Source: a virus
Taxonomy: Duplodnaviria > Caudoviricetes
Strand: one strand, 5' to 3'
IMG/VR virus record: IMGVR_UViG_3300037851_000103
Span: 1 to 64,000 of that record
DNA length: 64,000 nt
Under the pieces are notes generated by a model. It was not told the DNA's origin, made no database searches, and was given only the letters and a program-made list of their open reading frames with translations. A program made the position numbers and the translations under genes. Shown here piece after piece: positions 628 through 19,209 of this stretch (the stretch's first letter is position 1; every line of letters starts with the position of its first letter).

Positions 628-1170
628 ATGGCCAAATATGTTAATATTATGAATTTTGAAATACGAATGAGACAATTTTGGCTACCTGGACAACCAGCAG
701 TCACTATTCCTGCCCATGGGATTATTGAGGGTCCAGAAGAAATGTTGAAAACTTTTAGTTTTCTAAGACCTTTTTATAACAATACTCAACCTTCTCCTAT
801 AATACCAAATAATATTCCAGAAGAAAAAAAAGATGTAATAAGAAATAATATATTGGCAGAAAAATATGGAAAAACCTTTTTTAATGAATTAGAAAAAGAA
901 GGTGTTATAAATACTCCACAACAATTAGAAAAAGAATCTGCAAAAAATCCTACCCCAGAAAAATCTTTTGCCAATGTAGACGATCAAGTGGTTGAAATGC
1001 CATTTGATATTACTAATGTTGAAAGTTGGGTAGATTTGACAAGAGAACAAGTTACCCAGGCTGCCAATATACTAAAATTGGATGTTGCTTCCGTAACCGA
1101 AACAGGTAGAAAACGCAAGTGGGCTATTATCAAATTGATTAAAAAATATATTGAAGATAATAATCTTTAA
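628..1170 (+). CDS. hypothetical protein
   Basis: 180 aa ORF with AAAGGA SD; no family recognised. Confidence 0.75.
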   Translation: MAKYVNIMNFEIRMRQFWLPGQPAVTIPAHGIIEGPEEMLKTFSFLRPFYNNTQPSPIIPNNIPEEKKDVIRNNILAEKYGKTFFNELEKEGVINTPQQLEKESAKNPTPEKSFANVDDQVVEMPFDITNVESWVDLTREQVTQAANILKLDVASVTETGRKRKWAIIKLIKKYIEDNNL

Positions 1171-1174
1171 TTAT

Positions 1175-1182
1175 TATAAATA
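1175..1182 (+). promoter_or_regulatory. T4-type late promoter TATAAATA
   Basis: Exact motif in the intergenic gap before ORF 1202. Confidence 0.65.
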
Positions 1183-1201
1183 TATCTAAAAGGAAATCTA
1201 A

Positions 1202-2020
1202 ATGACTTCAGTTATTGATTATAAAATGTTGAAAATAACTGATCCATTGCCCCATAGGGACGGTGGGGAATTAATTATCAAAAATTTCATAACGGTTGCT
1301 GATTATTTAGAAAATAGTGTTTTTATAGATAATACTACACAAAATATCGTAGGAAATAAAATTTTTGATTCATTATCTGTGACAAACATTACTGAAAATA
1401 ATTTGATAACCGTTGATAATAATGGAAAAATAATATCGTCAAATATATCTACAACCAATGTCGCTACAACTGGTTATGTGACAAATCTTTTTAACAATTT
1501 TAAATTATCAGATATATTAACAAATGGAAATATTACTAATGGTAATTCATTGATTGTTTCTATTGGTGATATTTTTTCTCTTGGTGCGTATTCAGTAACG
1601 GCTATTTTAAATGAAAATAATCTTATTTCAAATTCCCCCAATGCATTAGCAACGCAAAGTTCTATTAAAACTTATGTTGACACTAAAATAGCAAATATTT
1701 CAGGAATTGGCAATATTGATATAATATCAGGGCAAGTATCTAATATCAGTGGTTCTCAAATAATTGATACTGTGGATAATAAAAATTCTATAAAATGGCA
1801 TATTTTCATTTATGATACAACATTAGACAATTTTAGAAGTGAAGAAATATTATTTGCAACAAATGGTATTCAATGTAAATATAATGAAATCACAACGGAA
1901 TCTGTCGGTGATACATCAACGGTAACAGTAAGTGCAAATTGTTCAATTAATAGTAATTATTTGTATATCATACCTGTAACAGGAAGTTGGAATATCAAAT
2001 ATATAAGACAAGCGATTTAA
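1202..2020 (+). CDS. virion structural protein (fibre/collar-associated type)
   Basis: Contains SNSPNALATQSSIKTYVD and a C-terminal IDTVD..KNSIKWHI...RSEEILFATNG segment, both motif types seen in phage fibre-associated proteins. AAGGA SD. Confidence 0.55.
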   Translation: MTSVIDYKMLKITDPLPHRDGGELIIKNFITVADYLENSVFIDNTTQNIVGNKIFDSLSVTNITENNLITVDNNGKIISSNISTTNVATTGYVTNLFNNFKLSDILTNGNITNGNSLIVSIGDIFSLGAYSVTAILNENNLISNSPNALATQSSIKTYVDTKIANISGIGNIDIISGQVSNISGSQIIDTVDNKNSIKWHIFIYDTTLDNFRSEEILFATNGIQCKYNEITTESVGDTSTVTVSANCSINSNYLYIIPVTGSWNIKYIRQAI

Positions 2021-2034
2021 AAGGGGCACAAATT

Positions 2035-3180
2035 ATGGCATCCAATATTGTAGTATCTGGTGTCAAAATAGAAAGCCTTAAAAATAATAAGGATAAACTA
2101 TTAACTATTGATAATTCTGGACAAATTGTTGTAAGTGATTTAACTATTCATGATGTTTTAACTCATGGTCAAAAAGAAATTGAAGATAAATATGTTTTTA
2201 ATCAAGAAGTATTATTCAAAAAAAATATTATAGTTACTGGCGAAACCATAACAGAAAATAAAAAAATCATCAATCTTAAAAATAATTTTATAATTATTAA
2301 TTCTGGGGAAGAAGGTGATGGGGTTTCAACTGATATAGCTGGAATTAAAATTGATAGAGGAACTGAACCACCATACTATTTTATATTTAATGAACAAAAC
2401 AAAACTTTGCAAATTGGTTTAGAAAACAAATTATCTGATATTGTAACGGTAAATAATCAAGAATCTGGTATTGTCTGTTGGGACTCAAGTAAAAAACAAT
2501 TTATAACTTATAATAATTTATTAGATCATGAACCAATACAACAAAAATTTGATGAATTAAATAAAAAAACAGAAAATTTATTTAAAGTTTTATCAGTTAT
2601 TGATCAAATGAATGTCCAAAATAAAGTAATGATTGATGAATTATCACCTGTTGTTCAAGATCATTCCCAATCATTATTAACAATTTCTGAAAATCTCAAT
2701 ATACTTAATGAGTCTTTTGAAGAAAATAAAGTATTAAATGATTTTAAATCTATTGTAGAAAATGATTTAAAAACAATCAATGATGATATTCATGATTTAA
2801 AAACCGTTAAAAATGATTTAAATAATAAATTAAGATACCATGAAATTTTAGAAATTCAAAATGATATTAAATCGAATACTGACATAAACTTTAAATTTAA
2901 TGAACCATTAAAAGCAGATAAACATTATTTAATAGAATGCATAATAAATGGAATTGGATATGCAACTACAAGCAAGTTAGAGTGTGTTATTGAAGATTCG
3001 TTAGGCAATCCACTTAGTAATAAAGCAATATTAATTCCAGTAACTCACAATCAGCATGTATCATCTGTTAATGTGTGTAAAACTTTAATTAGTAATATTG
3101 GTACATTTACAGTTAAAATAAAAAATGCTACATTATGGAAGGAAATATATAATTGTAGTTTAATGGTAATTGAAATATAA
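2035..3180 (+). CDS. virion structural protein with coiled coil
   Basis: Likely start is ATG 2035 (AAGGGG SD), not 1987. The NNFIIINSGEEGDGVSTDIAGIKIDRGT motif is typical of phage fibre-associated proteins; there is a central heptad-rich region. Confidence 0.55.
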   Translation: MASNIVVSGVKIESLKNNKDKLLTIDNSGQIVVSDLTIHDVLTHGQKEIEDKYVFNQEVLFKKNIIVTGETITENKKIINLKNNFIIINSGEEGDGVSTDIAGIKIDRGTEPPYYFIFNEQNKTLQIGLENKLSDIVTVNNQESGIVCWDSSKKQFITYNNLLDHEPIQQKFDELNKKTENLFKVLSVIDQMNVQNKVMIDELSPVVQDHSQSLLTISENLNILNESFEENKVLNDFKSIVENDLKTINDDIHDLKTVKNDLNNKLRYHEILEIQNDIKSNTDINFKFNEPLKADKHYLIECIINGIGYATTSKLECVIEDSLGNPLSNKAILIPVTHNQHVSSVNVCKTLISNIGTFTVKIKNATLWKEIYNCSLMVIEI

Positions 3181-5393: not shown

Positions 5394-6557
5394 ATGGCTG
5401 GAGCATCAGACCCTTTTCGTTGGAAACGCTATTTTGGTCAATTTTCTGGCGATTATGATAATAATCGTGAAATTGAAACCTATGATAGTTTGATGGCTGA
5501 ATATGCTGGTATTGCCGGTGTCCCTATAATTTATTACACCATAAATGTCGATCAATATAAAAATGGAATAAATATAGCTACAGGAGAAAATTCTTCACCA
5601 TTATGGGATAGAGCTATCCAATTAACAGCATTACAAGAAAACTGGTCTAACGAAGCACAAAAAATAACAACTTTTAATTTAGAAAATATTGATGAATTGG
5701 TTTTATTTATTCATAGATCAACCTTTGATAAATTAATTGGGCCAAGGTCTGAAAATACTCCGGTACAAGGACCAAACCTAACCCCAAGACCAACTAGAAG
5801 GGGTGGATATGGCCCCATTACTAAAGATATTGTTAAAACTTTAAATAATGATTTATATTATGAAGTTATAACTGGTGGTTTGCATTTCCTTGAATCAAAT
5901 GCACAACATTTTGGACATAAATTTTGGTATAAATTAACATTAAAACCAAGAGAACCATCAGCCCCTATTATTGGAACTGGCGAACAATATGGATTATCAC
6001 AACAAACCATGACATTAGAACAATTAGCTTTGAGCAAAGGTTTGCCTGCGGATTATTACAAAGGAAATTCACAATTTGTTATACCGACTCCATCTTGCGA
6101 TGACTTATTACAACCATATCCAGATCCAGAATTGGCGGGAACCGTGCCTCCATCTTCTAGTAATCCAGATTCTTGTGGAAGAATAAATTATCAAACCACA
6201 GGTGGAAATATTGGCCCCCTTTCTGAAATTCCTGATGATTATTATCTACCAGATGGCAGAATTGCAGATAAATACCGGGTCGAAGGACCAAAATCATTCA
6301 GCAATTCCTCAGATACAGCTAAAGTTCAAACCCATGCAGAAACCGTCATTGATCCACAATCAAATCTAACAGTAACTAAAGATCTTCCTTCTGGAAGACA
6401 AGGAACATTTAACGAACAAAGCATTCCCATTTATGTTGATACTGGCGAACCTATTCCAGCTAACTCAGAAGACTATAGAAACTTTATTGGATATAATAAA
6501 TATGGGCCTTCTGGAAAAGTTGTAAGACATAGCAGAGAATTATGGGGTGATTGGTGA
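5394..6557 (+). CDS. gp14: neck/head-completion protein, T4 gp14-like, with C-terminal extension
   Basis: IETYDSLMAEYAGIAGVPIIYY...RAIQLTALQENW...TTFNLENIDELVLFIHRSTFDKL pattern; position between gp13 and gp15. Confidence 0.8.
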   Translation: MAGASDPFRWKRYFGQFSGDYDNNREIETYDSLMAEYAGIAGVPIIYYTINVDQYKNGINIATGENSSPLWDRAIQLTALQENWSNEAQKITTFNLENIDELVLFIHRSTFDKLIGPRSENTPVQGPNLTPRPTRRGGYGPITKDIVKTLNNDLYYEVITGGLHFLESNAQHFGHKFWYKLTLKPREPSAPIIGTGEQYGLSQQTMTLEQLALSKGLPADYYKGNSQFVIPTPSCDDLLQPYPDPELAGTVPPSSSNPDSCGRINYQTTGGNIGPLSEIPDDYYLPDGRIADKYRVEGPKSFSNSSDTAKVQTHAETVIDPQSNLTVTKDLPSGRQGTFNEQSIPIYVDTGEPIPANSEDYRNFIGYNKYGPSGKVVRHSRELWGDW

Positions 6558-6585
6558 TAATTTTTTAAAAAATAATAAAATGATA

Positions 6586-6593
6586 TATAAATA
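6586..6593 (+). promoter_or_regulatory. T4-type late promoter TATAAATA
   Basis: Exact motif in the intergenic gap before ORF 6619. Confidence 0.65.
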
Positions 6594-6618
6594 AATTATA
6601 ACACATCAAGGAGTCATT

Positions 6619-7242
6619 ATGGAAAAATTACTATTTAATGCTAATGTTATTGGAAAAAAAATCCATAAAATATTTGAAAATGCTAACCCATTTATTCCCG
6701 TTAATCCAGAATTAAATGGGGGAAAAAAAGAAATAGAAACTCCTGATATGGAAAATGGGGAAATAGAAGATACTGATGCTGAAGAGACTGGCGAAAATGG
6801 TGAGAATGGTGAGAAAAAAGAACATGAAATTATTGATGAATTATCTGATGCTGCTGATGAAATTAAATCTGCGGTCGATATGATTAAAGCCTCTGAAGAA
6901 TTAGAACATGATAATACTATTGATAAAGAAACTCATGAAAAAATTGAAGCAAAAGCCTCTGAAAAAATAGAACAAGCTAAACAAAAATTACAATCATTCC
7001 ATGATGAATTTAAAAATGCTGAAAATAAAGAAAATACTGGAATGACAACTGATACGGGAATGCCTCAACCTGAACCCGAAAAAGAAAATGGCGATGAAGA
7101 ATCTGATGATGATCAAGAATCTGAAAAAGATGTAGAAAATACTCAAGATGATTCTGAAGAATCTGATGATGATTCTGATGATGATTCTGATGATGATTCT
7201 GAAGAAGATGATGAAAAGGTTCTCATAGATAATAAAAAATGA
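6619..7242 (+). CDS. highly acidic low-complexity protein
   Basis: Very D/E-rich 207 aa ORF with AAGGAG SD. Confidence 0.75.
   Translation: MEKLLFNANVIGKKIHKIFENANPFIPVNPELNGGKKEIETPDMENGEIEDTDAEETGENGENGEKKEHEIIDELSDAADEIKSAVDMIKASEELEHDNTIDKETHEKIEAKASEKIEQAKQKLQSFHDEFKNAENKENTGMTTDTGMPQPEPEKENGDEESDDDQESEKDVENTQDDSEESDDDSDDDSDDDSEEDDEKVLIDNKK
7162..7197 (+). repeat. 12-nt tandem repeat (TCTGATGATGAT)x3 encoding SDDD
   Basis: Three exact copies at 7162, 7174 and 7186. Confidence 0.9.
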
Positions 7243-9512: not shown

Positions 9513-10598
9513 ATGTCAAATAAAAAGATATGCGAAATTTGTGGGGCAAGCATTTTTAAATCGTCAATATATGATCATGTATTGAAATATCATAATTTGA
9601 CGAAACGAGATTATTTAACTAATTATGTTAAAAGTATTTTTATATCTGAAATTGATGGAGAATGCTTTCAGGATTTATGCCATCTTTCAATTTATTTAAA
9701 AAAGAAAGGGGTTAATTTAGAAGAATATTGGCATAAATATTTTAAACCTGAACATCCCGAAATGACAGGATTCTGTAAACAATGTAATAAAAAATTAAAA
9801 TTTAACGGTTTGGGGCAAGGATATTCGATATTTTGTGGATTTTCTTGTTCTACAAAATGGTATGCTGAAAACACAGATCGAATTGAAAAGGCTATGAATA
9901 CTCTCAGACAAGAAAAAGAAAATAACCCAAATTATCAATTACAACCTGTTCAAATTAAATATTGGATTAATAAAGGTTATTCTGAAGTTGAAGCTAAAAA
10001 ACTTGTTAGTGAAAGACAAAAAACCTTTACACTTGAAAAATGTATTAAAAAATATGGGGAAGAAGAAGGAATTAAAAAATGGAAATCCAGACAAGACAAA
10101 TGGCAAAATACATTAAAATCTAAACCTTTAGAAGAACAAATCCGAATTAATAAAGCAAAATTTAATAATGGAGTTGGATTTTCAAAAATTTCTCAAAAAA
10201 TATTTTGGGAAATATATAATTATAATATCGCAACAATGGTTAACTTGGATGTTTATTTTGCGGAATTAAATAAAGATGAAAATGATATTATGGATTCCAG
10301 TGGTACTAGCCATGAATATTGTTTAGTTGACGAATATAATAAATTTTATTTTTTAGATTTTTATATAAAAAAATTAAATCTTTTAATAGAATTTGATGGG
10401 GATTATTGGCATAATGTAAGAGGAAATAAAGAACGCGATGCAATACGAGAGAAAAATATATTAACGGTATTGCCAGGATTAAAAATAATAAGAATTTCTG
10501 AAAAAGAATATAAAGAAAAATCTAGTATAATATTAGAATCCATAAAAAACGATATAAATGCGAGAATTGAGGAATATGGACTTGACATTAAATATTGA
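9513..10598 (+). CDS. free-standing homing endonuclease, Vsr/DUF559-like PD-(D/E)XK with N-terminal Zn fingers
   Basis: CEIC...HVLKYH and CKQC...CGFSC Zn motifs; C-terminal FLDFYIKKLNLLIEFDGDYWH...ERDAIRE...KIIRISE; lies between the two intein halves. Confidence 0.82.
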   Translation: MSNKKICEICGASIFKSSIYDHVLKYHNLTKRDYLTNYVKSIFISEIDGECFQDLCHLSIYLKKKGVNLEEYWHKYFKPEHPEMTGFCKQCNKKLKFNGLGQGYSIFCGFSCSTKWYAENTDRIEKAMNTLRQEKENNPNYQLQPVQIKYWINKGYSEVEAKKLVSERQKTFTLEKCIKKYGEEEGIKKWKSRQDKWQNTLKSKPLEEQIRINKAKFNNGVGFSKISQKIFWEIYNYNIATMVNLDVYFAELNKDENDIMDSSGTSHEYCLVDEYNKFYFLDFYIKKLNLLIEFDGDYWHNVRGNKERDAIREKNILTVLPGLKIIRISEKEYKEKSSIILESIKNDINARIEEYGLDIKY

Positions 10599-10944
10599 GA
10601 GAAAGTTTACCCAAGTTTTTGATGTTGAAGATTATGATATTTTAACTCCGCAAGGTTGGAAACCTATATCTAAAATAATGGAAACTGTACCATATGATGT
10701 TTGGTATGTCGAATTGGAAAATGGTGATAATTTAAAATGTGCAGACACCCATATATTATACACAGAAAATCACACTCAAATATTTGCTAAAAATATTATT
10801 ATTGGTCAACTTATTGAAACTGATACTGGATATCATAAATGTATTAAATTAGAAAAATTAGATATTCCTCCTGAAAATATGTATGATATTGAAGTTGATT
10901 CAATAGAACATGAATTGTATACAAATAATTTTGTAAGTCACAAT
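10576..10944 (+). mobile_element. split intein C-fragment (IntC, 123 aa)
   Basis: ILTPQGWKPI, LKCADTH (block B), MYDIEV (block F), SHN|T (block G; +1 Thr at 10945). Confidence 0.92.
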
Positions 10945-12372
10945 ACGGTTTGTACTGCTATTTTTATATTATGGTTTTCTTGTTTTCAAAAAGATAAAAC
11001 CGTTGCAATATTAGCAAACAAAGAAAAAACAGCCAAAAGTATATTAGAAGAAATAAAATATGCTTACGAAAATTTACCAGAATGGATAAAACCAGGAATT
11101 GAAGAATATAATGCAACATCCGTTCAATTTGATAATGGGTGTAAAATATTAGCAGCCGCCACATCAAAAGATTCGATTCGTGGTGAATCTATTGCATTAC
11201 TAGCATTGGATGAATTTGCTCACGTTGCTCCTGAAAAAGTTGATGAATTTTGGACTGGTATTATTCCCACCATATCAACAGGTGGTCGTTGTATTATTGT
11301 ATCCACCCCCAAAGGTACGGGTAACTTATTTTATAAACTTTGGATGGATGCTACGACAAAATCTGGGTCATTTCCATTTCATCCTACATTAGTACATTGG
11401 TCTGAAGTTCCAGGTAGAGACGAGGAATGGGCCAGACAACAAAAAGCGATTATTGGCGAACAACAATTTCAGCAAGAATACAACTGTCAATTCCAAGGTT
11501 CTACAATTACACTAGTTAGTTCTGAATTCATGTTAAAATATTTAAAATCAAAACCTCCGGTTGCTACTCCTGATGATTATACCAAAATGTGGGTTGATGG
11601 TGTTGAAAAAGATCATATATATGTGGTTTGTGCTGATATTGGTGCTGGGGTTGGGTCTGATTTTTCAATTATTAACGTTTTTGATCTTACATATTATATA
11701 ATGAGTAACAAAAAAGATCCAATAAAACAGGTTGCTATTTGGAGACATAATGGTATTACTCCTACAGAATTCACCAATTATGTTTATAATAGTTTAAAAT
11801 ATTGGAATGATGCGTATATTATTTGCGAGGTTAATCCTGGTGGTTATGGTGATGATTTAATTAATGATTTATTTAATACCTATAATTATGAAAATATTTT
11901 TATAGATATTGAGAAGGGTAGGAAGGGATTATTTTCGACAAAATCATCTAAACCCAAGTCTGCCAAATGGTTTAAAGAAGATTTAGAAGGGTTTAAGATT
12001 ATTTTAAATGATAGTGAAACGATTAATGAGATTACATATTTTGAAGAAGTTAAGGAAAATGTATTTAAAGCTAAAGCGGGTCGTAATTTACATGATGATT
12101 GTGTAATAACATGTTTACATTTAGCATTTTTCATACATTCTACATATTTTGATGGTGAATTATTTGATTATTTAAACAAGATGAATCCGAAGGCAGAAGT
12201 TGAAGATGCTTCTATTAAAAATTCTTTAGATTCTTCGGTATCGACCAATGAAGAGAATATAGATTTATCATCAGCATTTGAAGCGATATTAGATGATCCT
12301 GTAGATGAAAATGATGATAATTGGTTAGAACGTGATGAAATGAATATATATCGTAGACGGATGAATATTTAA
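10576..12372 (+). CDS. terL: split-intein C-part fused to terminase large subunit C-fragment (ATPase remainder plus nuclease)
   Basis: GAGGA SD before ATG 10576. The intein ends YTNNFVSHN, then TVCTAIFILW...AILANKEKTA, LLALDEFAHV (Walker B), IIVSTPKG, CADIGAG, HDDCV. Confidence 0.95.
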   Translation: MDLTLNIERKFTQVFDVEDYDILTPQGWKPISKIMETVPYDVWYVELENGDNLKCADTHILYTENHTQIFAKNIIIGQLIETDTGYHKCIKLEKLDIPPENMYDIEVDSIEHELYTNNFVSHNTVCTAIFILWFSCFQKDKTVAILANKEKTAKSILEEIKYAYENLPEWIKPGIEEYNATSVQFDNGCKILAAATSKDSIRGESIALLALDEFAHVAPEKVDEFWTGIIPTISTGGRCIIVSTPKGTGNLFYKLWMDATTKSGSFPFHPTLVHWSEVPGRDEEWARQQKAIIGEQQFQQEYNCQFQGSTITLVSSEFMLKYLKSKPPVATPDDYTKMWVDGVEKDHIYVVCADIGAGVGSDFSIINVFDLTYYIMSNKKDPIKQVAIWRHNGITPTEFTNYVYNSLKYWNDAYIICEVNPGGYGDDLINDLFNTYNYENIFIDIEKGRKGLFSTKSSKPKSAKWFKEDLEGFKIILNDSETINEITYFEEVKENVFKAKAGRNLHDDCVITCLHLAFFIHSTYFDGELFDYLNKMNPKAEVEDASIKNSLDSSVSTNEENIDLSSAFEAILDDPVDENDDNWLERDEMNIYRRRMNI

Positions 12373-12483: not shown

Positions 12484-14478
12484 ATGCCTCAAAATCTTTC
12501 TCCTTCAGTTGATATCAATGAAAAGGACTATACTCAAATTGTGCCATCTGTAACCAGTTCAGTTGGGGCAATGGTTATTCATGCTGCCAAAGGTGCATTA
12601 AATACTAGAGTTTTATTAACTAATACATCTGATTTAGAAGAGAAATTTGGTCGTCCTGCTGACTATAATTTTACCCATTGGTTTACTGCTGAAGCATTTT
12701 TAAAACAATCAAATCAATTATATGCTGTTCGTATAGAAGATGTTACTAAAGCTGTTCCTGGTTTAACTGTTGGAACATCATCAACTACTGCTGGTGATGT
12801 TGTAATTTTAGAAAACACAAGCAAGAAAGCTGAATTATTTCCATTAGGTTATACAAATATTAAAGAATTTGAAGCGAAGAAGGATTATTCAAAGAATCCA
12901 GATTTACCTCCTTCTGATCCTGATTCTTTAGATTATGCTGGTAACAATTTACTTGATGGTGAAAATTATCACTTTTATGCTGTTGGTCCTGGGTCATACT
13001 ATGAAGGAATTTCTGTATTAGTTGTTAATAAGACTGACTTTGATCTTATAAGAGATCTTAAAGATGAATTGGCTGAAGCAAGCACAACTGAAGATCAAAA
13101 TGATATAGCTGAAAAATATTACTATGGGACTCCTGCTACTACTGCTGCACCTGAAGTTGAATATTTATCAAATTCATTAACCAAATATGATATTTTAACT
13201 CCACCTGTTACAGTTGGCGATGATTGGACTGTCAATACCAATGTATTAACTGCTATAACTGGTTTTGAATATGGTCCTGCTGAACCAGATGAAGCTATCT
13301 TAATAGTGTTTGATGAATTTAATGCTCCTGTTGAACAATATCTTTTCTCAAATAATAAAGATAAAAAAGATACTCTTGGTAATAGTATGTTTGGTCCTAC
13401 CTTAGTTAATGGAAATTCTGAATATATTTACTTTTATATTGGCAACAATGAAGCTACCGCATCTGGTATAACGTTAGTATCAACCCGTAGAACCTTCTTA
13501 GGGTTTACTGATTATGATGCGGCAAATAATTTTGATAAATTAACTGGTGAAGTTTCTGGTACTGGAATTGGTGATTTAACTGGTGAAATAATGACTGCAT
13601 GGCAAGAACATTTTACCAATCCAGAAAGTCTTGAAGTTGATCTTTTAATTGATCCAGATTATGTCGATGAAATCAAACGTTATATAGATCAAATTGCAAG
13701 GGATATTAGAAAAGATTGTTTTGCTATTTTAAATGTAAGACAAGAGAAAATTCAAAATACTACAACTTTTAAACCTGTTGCAAATCCTTATACCACCATG
13801 AAAGATTATGTTGCCAATACTTTAAAAATAAATAGTTCGTATTCCGCTATTTATGGAAACTACTTTAAGATTTATGATAGATTTGCTGAAAAAGAACGTT
13901 GGGTTCCTGTTACTGGTTTCGTTGCTGCTGTTATGGCATATACTGATTTTAATGATGCCCAATGGTTTGCTCCTGCTGGTTTAAATCGTGGTATAATTTC
14001 TAATGTTACCGACATTGCGGTGAATCCAAATAAAGGCCAAAGAGATATTTTATATTACAATAGAATAAATCCAATAGTCAATTTTACTGGTGAAGGTATT
14101 GTAATATGGGGTCAAAAAACCTTACAATCAACTGCAAGTGCCTTCGATAGAATAAATGTTAGACGGTTATTCTTACATCTTGAAAAGAGCATCAAAAAGA
14201 TGGCAAGATTCTTCTTGTTTGAATTTAATGATGATTTCTCAAGATCCCGTTTCCGTGGAATCACAAACCCATTCTTATCTGGCGTTAAAGCTAGACGTGG
14301 CGTTTATGATTATTTAGTTGTATGTGATGAATCAAATAATACCGCACAAGTTATTGACAGCAATGAATTTAGAGCCGAAATATTAATCAAGCCTTCACGG
14401 GCTATTGAATTTATCAAACTAACATTTACTGCTGTTGGAACTGGTGTTGAGTTTAGTGAAGTCGTTGCAAAAGCCTGA
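12484..14478 (+). CDS. gp18: tail sheath protein, T4 gp18-like
   Basis: LSPSVDINEKD, FGRP, WFAPAGLNRG, RINPIV...GIVIWGQKT, AFDRINVRRLF, FEFND. Confidence 0.97.
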   Translation: MPQNLSPSVDINEKDYTQIVPSVTSSVGAMVIHAAKGALNTRVLLTNTSDLEEKFGRPADYNFTHWFTAEAFLKQSNQLYAVRIEDVTKAVPGLTVGTSSTTAGDVVILENTSKKAELFPLGYTNIKEFEAKKDYSKNPDLPPSDPDSLDYAGNNLLDGENYHFYAVGPGSYYEGISVLVVNKTDFDLIRDLKDELAEASTTEDQNDIAEKYYYGTPATTAAPEVEYLSNSLTKYDILTPPVTVGDDWTVNTNVLTAITGFEYGPAEPDEAILIVFDEFNAPVEQYLFSNNKDKKDTLGNSMFGPTLVNGNSEYIYFYIGNNEATASGITLVSTRRTFLGFTDYDAANNFDKLTGEVSGTGIGDLTGEIMTAWQEHFTNPESLEVDLLIDPDYVDEIKRYIDQIARDIRKDCFAILNVRQEKIQNTTTFKPVANPYTTMKDYVANTLKINSSYSAIYGNYFKIYDRFAEKERWVPVTGFVAAVMAYTDFNDAQWFAPAGLNRGIISNVTDIAVNPNKGQRDILYYNRINPIVNFTGEGIVIWGQKTLQSTASAFDRINVRRLFLHLEKSIKKMARFFLFEFNDDFSRSRFRGITNPFLSGVKARRGVYDYLVVCDESNNTAQVIDSNEFRAEILIKPSRAIEFIKLTFTAVGTGVEFSEVVAKA

Positions 14479-14494: not shown

Positions 14495-15133
14495 ATGCCA
14501 ATAGCTGACCAACCCTTTAACTTGCATTCATTTAGACAAGTCATTGGTGATCCGGCGCGTCCATATTTATTCATTGTTCATATTCCTGAGATTGGGACTG
14601 ATGTAACAATGACTTCATTAGCTAAATCTGCGTCATTGCCGGGATTTCAATTAGGCAAAGTTAATGTAGCTTTCCAAGGTATGAATATTAAAATAGGTGC
14701 GCCCCCTTCAGATATTCCAGATTGGAAAGTTGAATTTATTTGTGATGAAGCGCATGAATTGAGAAATATATTTATGCGTTGGCAATCTTTAGTATATGAT
14801 CCTGGTACAATGCTTTTGAGTCATTCTAATAGTTATAAATCTGATCAAATTGGTGTTGCTCAAATGGCTAGAAATGGTCAAAAAGTTGCTATTTTTAATC
14901 TTATTGGTGCATTTCCAGCAAATGTATCTGAAATAACTGTAGCGCAAGATCAAGGCCAAGCAATCGAAACTTTTAGCGTTGATTTTTCTATGGATTATTA
15001 TGTTAAGGTTGCTAACTTTGGCGATGATGCTACTGGTGTTGCTCCCTTTATCAGAACTGCACAATCAGTTAGAATTGATCGTGGTGCCCCGCCTCCTGGC
15101 GGTCAATGGATTACCCCATTTAATCCTCAATAA
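14495..15133 (+). CDS. gp19: tail tube protein, T4 gp19-like
   Basis: ARPYLFIV, KSASLPG, WKVEFICDEAHELRNIFMRWQ, LIGAFPANVSEI, IETFSVDF; follows the sheath gene. Confidence 0.92.
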   Translation: MPIADQPFNLHSFRQVIGDPARPYLFIVHIPEIGTDVTMTSLAKSASLPGFQLGKVNVAFQGMNIKIGAPPSDIPDWKVEFICDEAHELRNIFMRWQSLVYDPGTMLLSHSNSYKSDQIGVAQMARNGQKVAIFNLIGAFPANVSEITVAQDQGQAIETFSVDFSMDYYVKVANFGDDATGVAPFIRTAQSVRIDRGAPPPGGQWITPFNPQ

Positions 15134-15255: not shown

Positions 15256-16038
15256 ATGTCAATGAAATTCAATGATTTAAAGAATGCATTTTCAAAGAAA
15301 GAAATAGGTCAAGATGTAGTAGAATTACTATCTTCTCCTAATAAAGCAAGTATCAAAGGTATGACAACTAAAGATATAAAGGAAGTATTAAAAGCGATAG
15401 AGAAGCAAGATGAATATTTGATTCAACAAGCATTTGATGCTATTTTAGACCGTTGTGTCGTAGATTTAGACGGTGGGCCTTTTGATGTTAATGCTCTCTT
15501 AAGTCAAGATCGTTATTATTTACTTTTAAAAATTCGACAAAAGACTACAGGTGATGTATGTAAAATTAATCATCCGTGTCCAGTAAGTAAAAAGATGGTA
15601 GAAGGAATAACCATTGATTTGGGAAATTGTTTACAAGTTAAGAAATTTGAAGGCGAGTCTCTATTTAAAGAATATTCATTAAAAGATAATATAAAGATGA
15701 CATTGGGACCAATTACAAGAGGCGAAGAAAAAATTATTGAAAAGTATTTAAAAAAGATAAAGGACGGTAATTCTATTATTGAAAGACGATATGCGACTTA
15801 TGCTGCATTAGTTAAGGATATCTATATTAAAAATGATAAAGAATTTGAAAAGGTTGATATGGTTTTTGATGATAAGATTAAATTTATTACCGAATGTTGT
15901 TCAAATGTTGAATTGAAACTTATTGATGAATTTATTAAAGAATTAGATTTTGGTGCTACAATTAAATTCCATTTCAAATCAGATGATTATGAAAATGAGA
16001 ATGAAGAGGTGAATTTAATAAGTTTTTTTATTATGTAA
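15256..16038 (+). CDS. gp26: baseplate hub / tail assembly chaperone, T4 gp26-like
   Basis: IKGMTTKDIK..L, LLSQDRYYLLLKIRQKTTGD...CP, ELDFGATIKF; ends NLISFFIM; position ahead of the gp51-like and tape-measure genes. Confidence 0.75.
   Translation: MSMKFNDLKNAFSKKEIGQDVVELLSSPNKASIKGMTTKDIKEVLKAIEKQDEYLIQQAFDAILDRCVVDLDGGPFDVNALLSQDRYYLLLKIRQKTTGDVCKINHPCPVSKKMVEGITIDLGNCLQVKKFEGESLFKEYSLKDNIKMTLGPITRGEEKIIEKYLKKIKDGNSIIERRYATYAALVKDIYIKNDKEFEKVDMVFDDKIKFITECCSNVELKLIDEFIKELDFGATIKFHFKSDDYENENEEVNLISFFIM
16023..16029 (+). promoter_or_regulatory. candidate -1 slippery site T TTT TTT
   Basis: Seven T at 16023-16029, in register with the gp26 Phe-Phe codons. The -1 frame is the gp51-like frame. 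Confidence 0.6.
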
Positions 16039-16112
16039 TATCTTTAAATAGAAAAGATTGTATTCATCCATTATTTTATACATTATTTGGCCAAGAACAT
16101 TATGTAAAATAC

Positions 16113-16334
16113 ATGAATGATGCAATATTATTAATGGAATATTCTGAAGGTAAATTTTCATATAATGATATTGATAATTTATATGTTGAAGAATTGCCGT
16201 ATTTAACTGCTCAATTTAAACAATTATATGATCAAAAACAGAATAATAAGCAAGAATATATAAAAGGTATTATGGAATTTGTCAATGCTCGGGTTGATGT
16301 ATTATTTAAATTATTATCTGGCAAAAAAATATAA
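16113..16334 (+). CDS. gp51: gp51-like baseplate hub assembly protein (frame open from 16005; probably reached by -1 frameshift at about 16029)
   Basis: LLMEYSEGKFSYNDIDNLYVEE..L resembles the gp51 LM.H..YSL.EIENM.P.E pattern. There is no SD before 16113. Confidence 0.6.
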   Translation: MNDAILLMEYSEGKFSYNDIDNLYVEELPYLTAQFKQLYDQKQNNKQEYIKGIMEFVNARVDVLFKLLSGKKI

Positions 16335-16337
16335 ATA
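16330..16337 (+). promoter_or_regulatory. T4-type late promoter TATAAATA
   Basis: Exact motif ending 7 nt before ATG 16345; it overlaps the upstream stop. Confidence 0.5.
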
Positions 16338-16344
16338 ATCAGTA

Positions 16345-19209
16345 ATGGTAAATTATTTTAATAATTTTAAAGAAATGATTGAAAATTCTTTGAAAAATCA
16401 AAGAAGTGAATCTCCTATTATCGAAAATACTCCTGATGATACTATTATTTTAAAAAATATTGAAGATAATGTTGAAATAATTTTGGATAATATTGAAAAA
16501 AATAGTAATATTAAAGATGATATTGAAATTAAAAAAAGTAATGAACAAATTATTGAAACATTTGAAAAAAATCAAAAAATTATTGATAATATTATTGATA
16601 AATCAGAAGATGTTTCAGATACTATAACATTATTATCAGATACCGAAGATAATATAGAAATAATTATAGAAAATGAAGAAAAAATTAAAAAACAAAATGA
16701 AATAATTTTTAATAATTTTGATAATTATCATAAAAAAACAAATATTTTTATTAGAAGTTATAAGAATAGTATAGAAAATTATACTAAAATGATTGATATA
16801 ATTAAAACTAAAATAAACAAATCTAAAGATACTATAGGAAAACAATTTAATAATTGGATAGATCATATAGATTCAAAATTTGATAAGATTATTTCTAATG
16901 TTAAAAAGATTAATATAAAGACAATAGAGAATTATTTTGATACATTAGCCAAGAAGGAACCAATAACTTGTCGGATGGCAAATTTTGTTAAAGAGAAGTT
17001 AGGTAATTTTTTTGAAAAATATGCAACCCCGATATTTAATTTTTTTTCATTTGAATTTGAAACCGTTAAGAATGTATTAACATTTATAGGAAAATCAGGA
17101 TTTAAAATATTTTCATGGATAATGAATATTGGAACCTTTGTTGTTGAAAAATTATGGTCAACTATAAAATGGTTATCAAAAATTGGTTGGGAATTTATAT
17201 CAACAACGTTTAATGTTATTTCAAGTTTAGCCAAGAAGGGGTTCAATTTTTTCATGGATATAATGATAGAAGTATTATCAAATCCATTAGTAGTATTAGC
17301 TATTGGAGTTGCAATTTGGTGGAAAGGTTCTGCTATAATTAAATTTTTTAAAGATTATATTCAACCCTTAATAGGAAAATTTTGGGATACGTTAAAATCA
17401 TCATTTGAAAAAGTATTTGCGACTACCAATGATTTTTTAATTAATATTGGATTAACAGAAGATAGAAAGAATACAATTTGGAGTTATTTTGATGATATAT
17501 TTACATTTGTATTTAATAATAATGTTGTTAAAGGTTGGATTGATACGACTTTTATGACCTTATTTGGTATGTCTTATACAGATATGTATAATGTTACATC
17601 ATCTTGGGTTTCTGATACAATTAAAACCTCTTGGAATAAATTTAAAGAATTTTGGGATGATGTTGAAGTTGGAAATTTATCTGAACAATTTATGGATTTC
17701 GTTAAAGATTGGAAACTTGTTTGGAATGTTTTAACAAGAGGGACCACATTTCAGACAGAAATTCAAAGAATGGATTTGCAAGATGCTATTCCTGATTTGA
17801 TAAAAAATAAATTGTTAGATTATACGCAAATGATGACACAATCTATAGTTGCGTCAAAAATAGCAAGTACCCCGATTACTAAAATAGATATTGGTGGTAT
17901 TCAAAAACTAAAAAACGTAGTATTAAATGAAGTTAATACATCTATTGACAATTTAATTTTAAAATTTTCTGATTATGATCTAACTAATTTACAATCATAT
18001 CTTAAAATTAAAGCGAAACAATCATTAGATTCTTTAGATTTATCTAAAATGTTATCCATGGATAAAGAAAAATTGAAAGATGAAAGTGTTCTTCTAGAAT
18101 CATCTATTAATTTATTTCGTCAGAATATTTTAACTGATACAAAAAATTTAACAGAAATGGTTAATACGGCAACAGATTTAACAGATGCAACCAATAAATT
18201 AATTAAATTAACATCAATGACTATAGAAAGTTTTAGTAGTATAACCCCCCAAATTGTTGGATATATAGAAGATTATAAAAAAAGTGCTATGGAATTGAAT
18301 GATAGATTAATGGTATCAGCAGAAACAATTAATTATAATTTAAATGATAATATTAATAAATTATACAATAAAGATGTTTCATTACTTAAATCCCGCGAAT
18401 TTATTAAAGAATATTTTAGATTAATATCAATAATGGCAATTGCTACTAATCAAAATGATTTCGAATCCGCAACACAACAATTTGGGTCATTATTTCAAAA
18501 ATTTGGATTGCCAATAACTACATATGAAGCGAGTATTATCACTAAATTTAATAAATTTAATATTATAAATGAACAACTTAATACATTATTATTAAAAGGT
18601 GTATTAATGGAATGGAATAAAGATTTATCAAAAAAGAGAATAAGTTTTGATAAATCTTTAAATTTTGCTGAAATTCCGAATTATGGATTATCATTACAAC
18701 AAATACAAAAGGCATATGAATTAGGAATGATGTTGGGGCATTCTCAATTTTTCTCTGAATTGCATCCAATGCTTCAAGCGCAAATATATACTGATCTACT
18801 ATCAAAAGAATCAGAATTAAAATATGAAAAATTTAAACATCTAATTAAATATTATTATGAAAAAGATGGTTTTGTTAATTATGAATGGGTTAAAAAAGAA
18901 GCAGAACGTGTTGGACCTTATAGCATAAATCCAAATTCTGTTGAACAAATGGAAGTTGGAAAATATGTGACCAAACCAACTTTAGCATTAATTGGCGAAG
19001 GAAAATCGCCTGAATTAGTTGTTCCTATGAATAAAAAAGGTATTGAATTTATATATCAGACAATACAAGATAAGTTAGACACATACATTTCAGATACTCA
19101 TAAAGATAATATACAAGTTATTCAAGAATATTCAAATTCAATTATCTCACAACCTGACGAAATGATTTTCAATCTTAAAAATTTAGCTATGGGGGTTATT
19201 AATAAATGA
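16345..19209 (+). CDS. tape-measure-like protein 1
   Basis: Long helical protein with Trp/Phe-periodic amphipathic repeats and a C-terminal KYVTKPTLALIGEGKSPELVVPMN motif typical of tape measure proteins; follows the chaperone-like pair. Confidence 0.78.
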   Translation: MVNYFNNFKEMIENSLKNQRSESPIIENTPDDTIILKNIEDNVEIILDNIEKNSNIKDDIEIKKSNEQIIETFEKNQKIIDNIIDKSEDVSDTITLLSDTEDNIEIIIENEEKIKKQNEIIFNNFDNYHKKTNIFIRSYKNSIENYTKMIDIIKTKINKSKDTIGKQFNNWIDHIDSKFDKIISNVKKINIKTIENYFDTLAKKEPITCRMANFVKEKLGNFFEKYATPIFNFFSFEFETVKNVLTFIGKSGFKIFSWIMNIGTFVVEKLWSTIKWLSKIGWEFISTTFNVISSLAKKGFNFFMDIMIEVLSNPLVVLAIGVAIWWKGSAIIKFFKDYIQPLIGKFWDTLKSSFEKVFATTNDFLINIGLTEDRKNTIWSYFDDIFTFVFNNNVVKGWIDTTFMTLFGMSYTDMYNVTSSWVSDTIKTSWNKFKEFWDDVEVGNLSEQFMDFVKDWKLVWNVLTRGTTFQTEIQRMDLQDAIPDLIKNKLLDYTQMMTQSIVASKIASTPITKIDIGGIQKLKNVVLNEVNTSIDNLILKFSDYDLTNLQSYLKIKAKQSLDSLDLSKMLSMDKEKLKDESVLLESSINLFRQNILTDTKNLTEMVNTATDLTDATNKLIKLTSMTIESFSSITPQIVGYIEDYKKSAMELNDRLMVSAETINYNLNDNINKLYNKDVSLLKSREFIKEYFRLISIMAIATNQNDFESATQQFGSLFQKFGLPITTYEASIITKFNKFNIINEQLNTLLLKGVLMEWNKDLSKKRISFDKSLNFAEIPNYGLSLQQIQKAYELGMMLGHSQFFSELHPMLQAQIYTDLLSKESELKYEKFKHLIKYYYEKDGFVNYEWVKKEAERVGPYSINPNSVEQMEVGKYVTKPTLALIGEGKSPELVVPMNKKGIEFIYQTIQDKLDTYISDTHKDNIQVIQEYSNSIISQPDEMIFNLKNLAMGVINK

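Follow-up and report, generated by a model that had tools for sequence, protein, structure and literature searches.

A Probable Programmed -1 Frameshift in a gp26-Family, Putative Tail Assembly Chaperone Gene of an Uncultured Giant Phage

Introduction

Long-tailed phages are said to share a conserved -1 frameshift in their tail assembly chaperone genes, known from gpG and gpGT of phage lambda and reportedly described by Levin, Hendrix and Casjens in 1993 and by Xu, Hendrix and Duda in 2004, and almost all such phages are generally taken to have this G/GT frameshift. The textbook exception, as far as we are aware, is T4 with its relatives, in which no G/GT pair has been recognised, and the roles of their gp26 and gp51 proteins in hub assembly have stayed vague. 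The -1 frameshift of the Escherichia coli dnaX gene, which Larsen et al. are said to have described in 1994, reportedly has a Shine-Dalgarno (SD)-like element about 10 nucleotides (nt) from the heptamer A_AAA_AAG, together with a hairpin. Here we analyse a gene of the gp26/gp51 family and the open reading frame (ORF) that overlaps its end, which lie in a 64,000-nt stretch of phage DNA, hereafter called the window. The window comprises positions 1-64,000 of IMGVR_UViG_3300037851_000103, an 84-kb IMG/VR record of an uncultured giant phage that derives from a metagenome assembly and is estimated to be 38% complete.

Judging from its sequence and from those of its relatives, the gp26-family gene at 15256-16038 probably encodes a tail (hub/tape-measure) assembly chaperone that is decoded in two ways by a -1 slip on the heptamer T_TTT_TTT. 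In the proposed mechanism, most ribosomes would read AGT TTT TTT ATT ATG TAA and release a protein of 260 residues (the short form), and a fraction would slip back by one base with two tRNA-Phe on the heptamer (16023-16029) and read 101 further codons in the -1 frame. The resulting 359-residue protein (the long form) would consist of 258 common N-terminal residues, a linker of about 20 residues and a helical domain of about 75 residues. The sequence AAGAGG, located 13 nt upstream of the heptamer, would pair with the 16S rRNA and aid the slip, as in E. coli dnaX. By likeness to lambda gpG/gpGT and T4 gp26/gp51, both forms, in a ratio set by the slip frequency, would act jointly on the tape-measure protein and on tail-tube/hub assembly, and both would be absent from the virion. 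We infer the occurrence and frequency of the slip, the role of the GAGG within this element and the chaperone function from the comparisons presented below.

Results

A Slippery Heptamer and an Open -1 Frame at the Gene End

The gp26-family ORF ends with AAT TTA ATA AGT TTT TTT ATT ATG TAA, and its run of seven T (16023-16029) sits in the X_XXY_YYZ register (AG-T TTT TTT) that tandem slippage of two tRNAs would use. The -1 frame has a TGA at 16002-16004, is stop-free from 16005 and is terminated by the TAA at 16332-16334. A slip on the heptamer is predicted to yield a product of 258 + 101 = 359 amino acids (aa) with the junction ...NLISFF-YYVISLNRK... (predicted junction peptide of the long form, ...NLISFFYYVISLNR; predicted tryptic junction peptide, SDDYENENEEVNLISFFYYVISLNR). 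These are the elements from which an initial annotation of the locus had proposed a programmed -1 frameshift: the same letters of the ORF end and of the T-run were found at the same coordinates, the -1 frame is indeed free of stops from 16005 to 16334, and translation reproduced both the products of 359 and 260 aa and the NLISFF junction.

The combination of heptamer, nearby stop and open -1 frame exceeds chance in the window. Among the 19,711 codons of its 36 + strand ORFs there are ten in-register T_TTT_TTY sites, and the heptamer at 16023-16029 is the sole one located within three codons of a stop; the -1 continuation is 101 codons long at this site as against 0-29 codons at the nine others. 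The earliest ATG, GTG or TTG of the -1 frame is the ATG at 16113, 28 codons into the extension. As the initial annotation had remarked, it has no SD sequence: none of AGGA, GGAG and GAGG lies upstream of it, whereas 23 of the 36 window genes have one. Initiation at this ATG would moreover remove the first six residues of a predicted helix of the extension (residues 23-38), including a His that is invariant within the window's clade; this His and an invariant Tyr (Y17) both lie upstream of the ATG in the alignments (A3 and A7).

Conservation of the Heptamer and of the -1 Frame in Relatives

Conservation was surveyed in 78 non-identical related loci from three clades, namely the window's clade (six loci, the window among them), a sister clade (seven loci) and the largest clade (60 loci). 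The closest relatives are four IMG/VR loci (L004-L007) and a 380-kb metagenome contig (L009), whose gp26-type proteins are 42-52% identical to that of the window. No close relative of the window was found in the phage GenBank collection, and the only two hits (L104 and L105) when IMG/VR was scanned by exact pattern for near-identical relatives were chance matches in unrelated DNA; one family member (protein P0002) is 95% identical.

In the five close relatives the gene ends either with AGT TTT TTT AT[ACT] ATG T[AG]A or with AGT TTT TTC ATG GAG TGA, and it is followed by a homologous -1 continuation of 84-94 residues, the +1 frame closing quickly. Over the whole survey, 72 of the 78 loci combine T_TTT_TTY in register, placed 0-2 codons ahead of the stop, with a -1 continuation of 45-101 codons, one further locus having C_TTT_TTC in its place; the +1 frame closes within a few codons across the loci with a -1 continuation. 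The slippery run and the open -1 frame are thus kept in the relatives at 42-52% identity and in two further clades, which was the check on homologs that the initial annotation had proposed. The continuations of the largest clade are mutually homologous. They lack an ATG in the first 10 codons at 50 of the 60 loci and in the first 25 codons at 47, and at 27 of the 60 there is no ATG, GTG or TTG within the first 10 codons. These start-less extensions are therefore expressible by a shift only.

The heptamer is also constrained at synonymous positions. TTT makes up 46-87% of the Phe codons in these genomes (about 50% in L007 and L009), and the joint chance expectation of an NNT codon before the Phe-Phe pair and of TTT as the first Phe codon is about 1e-3 for the window's clade and about 2e-4 for the sister clade. 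Between the heptamer and the extension domain there are spacer insertions of 16 codons in the window and of nine codons in L005; both are multiples of three nucleotides and contain no -1 stop, as selection for keeping the extension in frame with the heptamer would predict. Conservation, synonymous constraint, fold and gene order together support the programmed -1 shift on T_TTT_TTT.

Three IMG/VR loci of the largest clade (L067, L087 and L090) lack the T-run or the -1 continuation, and in two of them the gp26-type ORF is extended to a different C-terminus; they may be fused, decayed or misassembled variants.

Two finished genomes of cultured phages have the same arrangement. In Klebsiella phage vB_KleM_RaK2 (L103, NC_019526.1, 3100-3330), CGT TTT TTC is followed by a 64-codon -1 continuation within a 364-nt unannotated gap, and in Vibrio phage vB_VmeM-32 (L102, KU160494.1, 3190-3385), GAT TTT TTT is followed by a 58-codon -1 continuation within a 213-nt unannotated gap; both records annotate the short ORF alone. 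Listeria phage LIS04 (L001, OQ999172.1) was considered as further support for a -1 shift and rejected, the -1 frame of its gp26-family gene meeting a TAG at once. This gene, annotated as 'baseplate hub' (5932-6890 region), ends with GAG TTT TTT AGT ACC CGA TTC TAA and is separated by a 230-nt unannotated gap from the tape-measure gene. An open frame of 102 codons (6569-6877) lies there in the +1/-2 frame, with an ATG near 6632, and the LIS04 T-run may represent a different mode of recoding or lie beside a small overlapping gene.

Candidate Stimulators

A GAGG is found at -17 to -14 from the heptamer, that is, with a 13-nt spacer, in 12 of the 13 loci of the window's and sister clades; in the thirteenth (L018) it is displaced 3 nt further upstream. 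In the window, whose + strand has just 59 copies of the tetranucleotide, it occupies 16006-16009. A conserved Glu-Glu pair is encoded at the same place, and its second Glu is GAG in 12 of the 13 loci (6/6 in the window's clade), although GAG accounts for 7-35% of the Glu codons across the genomes of both clades, for 7-27% within the window's clade and for 7% in the window itself. The distance from GAGG to the ATG that overlaps the zero-frame stop in the relatives (see Discussion) is about 28 nt, which is too long for GAGG to be the initiation SD of that ATG; the spacing to the heptamer suits a dnaX-like stimulation. The host evidently uses SD sequences, as seen in 23 of the 36 window genes, and by analogy with dnaX the SD-like AAGAGG probably stimulates the -1 slip.

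RNA structure is a second candidate stimulator in some relatives. Stable hairpins with z-scores of -2.0 to -3.5 are predicted 4-7 nt past the heptamer in L004, L005 and L006. The nine-codon insert of L005 (3772-3820) forms a hairpin that starts 4 nt past the heptamer, has a 9-base-pair (bp) outer stem (-18.5 kcal/mol, z = -3.0) and encloses the ATG; from its sequence it looks like an acquired frameshift stimulator.

Family and Fold of the Short Form

The 260-aa protein matches the Pfam family PF12322 (T4_baseplate, the gp26/gp51 family) with 52.2 bits against a cut-off of 24.5 (E 8e-14), the match extending over residues 24-258 and over profile positions 9-218 of 219. It also matches phrog_150 (E 1e-16), and its fold matches in BFVD are proteins named 'baseplate hub subunit/assembly chaperone', with E down to 7e-12. 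No solved PDB structure of a gp26/gp51 family member was found by sequence-profile search. The AlphaFold2 model of the short form (predicted local distance difference test, pLDDT, 88.9) was compared with 48,161 PDB representative chains in a VIA-align wide search. The first three ranks went to 2ob9, the tail assembly chaperone of HK97 (Z 7.2), to 3klu, the protein YqbN of a Bacillus subtilis prophage (Z 7.2), and to 3fgx (Z 6.8), values that according to the tool's own warning can reflect common arrangements; Z then drops to 4.9 and 4.1, the next unrelated fold being at 4.1. The alignment with 2ob9 covers 96 of its 104 residues and falls on residues 1-102 of the short-form model. A Foldseek search of the short form against the PDB returned nothing significant, 2ob9 being ranked 38th. 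It is unlikely that three chaperone-type chains came out on top by chance, and the model comparison supports a tail-assembly-chaperone fold like that of HK97 and YqbN for the N-terminal 100 or so residues of the short form.

In a family sample of 123 representatives obtained by a full HMMER search, nearly all members end with Phe-Phe followed by 0-3 residues. T4 gp26 (gene 26, L002 3803-3860) has kept this motif as Glu-Phe-Phe-Glu-Leu-Leu, and T4 gp51 has Val-Phe-Lys-Leu-Leu at the matching place. The Phe-Phe of gp26 is encoded by TTC TTT, so that T4 has no slip site there. The motif may be a relic of a slip site or have a protein-level role of its own.

The -1 Extension and Its Relation to T4 gp51

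Residues 1-16 of the extension form a window-specific linker and residues 23-96 a helical domain. The AlphaFold2 model of the extension has an overall pLDDT of 80, which rises to 87-94 over the conserved part and falls to about 53 over residues 1-20, and its confident helices comprise residues 23-38, 45-49 and 55-96. By profile comparison, the extensions of the window's clade and of the sister clade are clearly homologous (hhalign probability 98.9%, E 1e-17). Both have a weak, colinear similarity to the extension of the largest clade (E about 0.01-0.02, decoys 0.66 or worse). A Foldseek search of the extension against BFVD returned nothing significant. In the BFVD matches, short form and extension hit neighbouring accessions in Leptospira phage LE4 (A0A343LED6/A0A343LED7) and in another phage (I1VX76/I1VX77), which is a small independent hint.

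Leiman et al. (2010; PMC3004832, Table 2) name both T4 gp26 (208 aa) and gp51 (249 aa) among the hub assembly chaperones. Both match PF12322 and they are paralogues (BLASTP E 2e-6), gp51 consisting of a gp26-type domain (residues 1-201) and a 48-aa tail that carries PF28602 in precomputed annotations. The extension of the largest clade and the gp51 tail show a reciprocal and colinear similarity (E about 0.003, decoys 0.28 or worse). For the extension of the window's clade, comparison with the profile of the gp51 tail gave E 0.02 at an hhalign probability of 2%, and profile comparisons with full-length gp51 were not significant or aligned elsewhere than the tail. The initial annotation had called the downstream ORF 'gp51-like'. 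As the name of a protein this did not stand, and for the extension it is plausible through a weak chain of similarities; because gp51 is a full gp26-type domain plus a tail, it is the long form, and not the downstream ORF, that would correspond to gp51.

Gene Neighbourhood

The features of the locus are collected in Table 1. The order sheath, tube, pair of overlapping ORFs and tape measure is found in the window and in the five close relatives, and the position between tube and tape measure also in LIS04; in the window a large terminase subunit gene likewise lies upstream of the pair. The 954-aa protein encoded next to the pair matches the 820-aa protein at the same position of L006, a 332-kb relative (BLASTP E 9e-24), the two having in common a C-terminal block ...LA(L/V)IGEG..PE(L/V)V(V/I)P; the L006 protein matches a tape-measure PHROG at E 1e-5, and the 803-aa protein at this position of L007 does so at E 6e-9. 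With a tube gene on its 5' side and a tape-measure gene on its 3' side, the pair therefore occupies the canonical tail assembly chaperone slot of long-tailed phages. The pair (15256-16334) lies directly before the tape-measure gene (from 16345), as had been stated in the initial annotation, whose reading of gp26/gp51 homologs as a G/GT-type chaperone pair is supported by this slot, by the conserved heptamer and by the chaperone fold, with two refinements that concern the gp51 label and the ATG of the relatives.

Table 1. Positions of features at and around the gp26-family gene in the window.
Feature	Position	Strand	Basis
Tail sheath gene	12484..14478	+	Pfam Phage_sheath_1 and Phage_sheath_1C; phrog_23, E 1e-99
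Tail tube gene	14495..15133	+	phrog_45 tail tube, E 1e-36
gp26-family gene, zero frame, short form of 260 aa	15256..16038	+	PF12322, phrog_150, AlphaFold2 model
AAGAGG, SD-like, 13 nt 5' of the heptamer, proposed stimulator	16004..16009	+	Conserved position in the clades
Putative slippery heptamer T_TTT_TTT, zero frame Ser-Phe-Phe	16023..16029	+	Register and conservation
Predicted -1 extension, 101 codons and TAA	16029..16334	+	hhalign against sister clade, AlphaFold2 model
Zero-frame stop, two codons past the heptamer	16036..16038	+	Sequence
Weak AU-rich hairpin, 6 bp, 10 nt past the heptamer, unconvincing as a stimulator	16040..16058	+	z = +1.6
First ATG of the -1 frame, without SD, inside conserved helix 1 of the extension	16113..16115	+	Sequence, alignments, model
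Tape-measure protein gene, 954 aa	16345..19209	+	phrog_12798, E 0.004; homology to tape-measure-matching proteins of relatives

Further observations concern the neighbouring genes. The tape-measure gene starts 11 nt past the stop of the extension (16332-16347, TAAATAATCAGTAATG) and has no SD sequence; ribosomes that have read the -1 frame, or those that terminate upstream, may translate it by coupling. L006 carries an HNH/homing-endonuclease gene (943-2157, minus strand; phrog_559, E 1e-34) between sheath and tube, a position at which the window has no such insertion. At 9513-12372 of the window two ORFs overlap (9513-10598 and 10558-12372), and the match to a terminase N-terminal domain begins at residue 130 of the second.

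Discussion

Weighing the Frameshift Against Other Explanations

Several observations weigh against the proposed frameshift or against parts of it. In L004, L006, L007 and L009 and in all seven sister-clade loci, the fourth -1 codon is an ATG whose first letters belong to the zero-frame stop region (TAATG or TGATG overlap); in L005 the ATG lies further downstream, a Tyr-Asn-Val-Met motif being kept after the insert, and the window has ATA at the place of the overlapping ATG. Because its TG is conserved outside the zero-frame ORF, this ATG is suggested to be used as a start or to be a conserved Met in the fusion, and in the ATG-bearing relatives reinitiation may additionally yield the extension as a free protein. 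Conservation of the protein, in a genome rich in A and T, accounts for some of the T-run, since the Phe-Phe motif is found family-wide and even in the non-slippery T4 gp26. There is no stable hairpin downstream of the heptamer in the window (z = +1.6), where at most a 6-bp AU hairpin forms; the structural Z of about 7 lies in the cautionary range already mentioned, and the similarity between the extension and the gp51 tail is weak and transitive.

On these grounds the locus could consist of two ordinary genes without any programmed shift, in which the downstream ORF is translated separately and the T-run is simply the AT-rich coding of Ser-Phe-Phe. Translation of the second gene would start by reinitiation at the stop-overlapping ATG in the relatives and at the ATG at 16113, or weakly at ATA or ATT, in the window. 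The overlap kept in four of the five close relatives and in 7/7 sister-clade loci, the C-terminal Phe-Phe of the whole family including T4 gp26, the 46-87% share of TTT among Phe codons and the frequency of stop-start overlaps in the window (e.g., 4359/4362 and 19206/19209) all fit such an arrangement. However, the window itself has ATA at the stop and its first ATG lacks an SD and truncates a conserved helix, so that a frameshift is the sole route to the complete extension there; most extensions of the largest clade are without any start; synonymous positions are conserved both in the NNT that precedes Phe-Phe and in the GAGG at -17; the spacer insertions stay in frame and open; and the hairpins of L004-L006 would bury the ATG. 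Taken together, we consider separate genes unlikely. Homopolymer runs also allow realignment of RNA polymerase, as established for long A/T runs in some bacterial and insertion sequence genes, and the polymerase might add one U on the seven T, so that part of the mRNAs would carry both ORFs in one frame. Sequence data cannot by themselves separate this from ribosomal slippage because the protein product is identical, and many loci of the largest clade do have runs of eight or nine T (AAT TTT TTT TTC). Yet many others have just six T and then C (AAT TTT TTC), which is short for productive polymerase slippage, the invariable X_XXY_YYZ register matters to tRNAs and not to a polymerase, and the conserved SD-like element at a dnaX-like spacing points to the ribosome, all of which makes a transcriptional origin quite improbable. 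Least probable of all, and in our view hardly credible, is that a homopolymer assembly error has split one gene or that the downstream ORF is a dying remnant. The window does come from a metagenome assembly estimated at 38% completeness, its extension has an unusual 16-codon insert and it has lost the ATG of its relatives, but the layout of a stop after the heptamer recurs in 72/78 independent assemblies and in the finished RaK2 and vB_VmeM-32 genomes, and the extension is conserved and predicted to fold. A -1 ribosomal slip on T_TTT_TTT is thus the reading that we prefer for the window.

Implications

The proposed mechanism and the gene slot have their precedent in G/GT; the novelty lies in the SD-like element, in the family of the protein and in its link to T4 gp26/gp51. 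Frameshifting in gp26-family genes was not found described in the literature searched, which covered few subscription journals, and an earlier description is possible. A broader proposal, which we put forward tentatively and at a little under even chances, is that the gp26/gp51 family is the tail (tape-measure/hub) assembly chaperone of the whole T4-related and jumbo-myovirus radiation and that the T_TTT_TTY shift is the ancestral way of making the two forms, T4 being a derived exception with two paralogues; the window's clade would then combine a dnaX-like, SD-stimulated slip with reinitiation at an overlapping ATG and make up to three products from one locus, namely the short form, the long form and a free extension. 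If the slip is real, position, fold and recoding would tie the gp26 family to the tail-assembly-chaperone paradigm, the two paralogous 'hub chaperones' of T4 would be explained, and a stretch of 200-360 nt that carries no annotation in the genomes of many jumbo and T4-like phages, among them RaK2 and vB_VmeM-32, would be coding. As both of these phages are cultured, the slip is directly testable there. The genes receive the name 'baseplate hub' from current annotation pipelines, which would, in that case, miss the long product.

Comparison With Known Systems

The closest likeness is to lambda G/GT. In both, overlapping ORFs lie directly 5' of the tape-measure gene, a slippery heptamer is located near the 3' end of the first ORF and the second ORF is in the -1 frame (without a usable start in the window), so that a short and a long product with a common N-terminus are made or, for the window, predicted. 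The modelled N-terminal domain of the window's protein also shares its fold class with the HK97 gp10 chaperone. Unlike lambda, the window's protein belongs to PF12322, its short form has 260 aa against about 140 and extra C-terminal domains, the heptamer is T_TTT_TTT instead of G_GGA_AAG and an SD-like element lies upstream of it; furthermore, the sister lineages also have an ATG at the stop, and the slip of the window is predicted from sequence. With dnaX the window has in common an internal SD-like sequence, 13 nt 5' of a tandem-slippage heptamer and conserved at synonymous positions, to which several relatives add a hairpin 4-7 nt downstream. It differs from dnaX in its heptamer, in having no hairpin and in that its GAA GAG G also encodes a conserved Glu-Glu.

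The comparison with T4 is of another kind. The gp26 and gp51 proteins are a short and a long version of one domain, as the two forms of the window's protein would be, but hard-wired in T4 as two separate and divergently transcribed genes, and the gene next after gene 26 is gene 25 instead of the tape-measure-like gene 29. The gp51 tail has about half the length of the window's extension and no significant direct similarity to it; the Phe-Phe near the end of the domain is common to both systems. RaK2 and vB_VmeM-32 differ from the window in that their gene is not adjacent to a tube gene and is distant in sequence, with about 26% identity to the query clade. As in the window, however, their gp26-family gene ends with an in-register T_TTT_TTY that is followed by an open -1 continuation.

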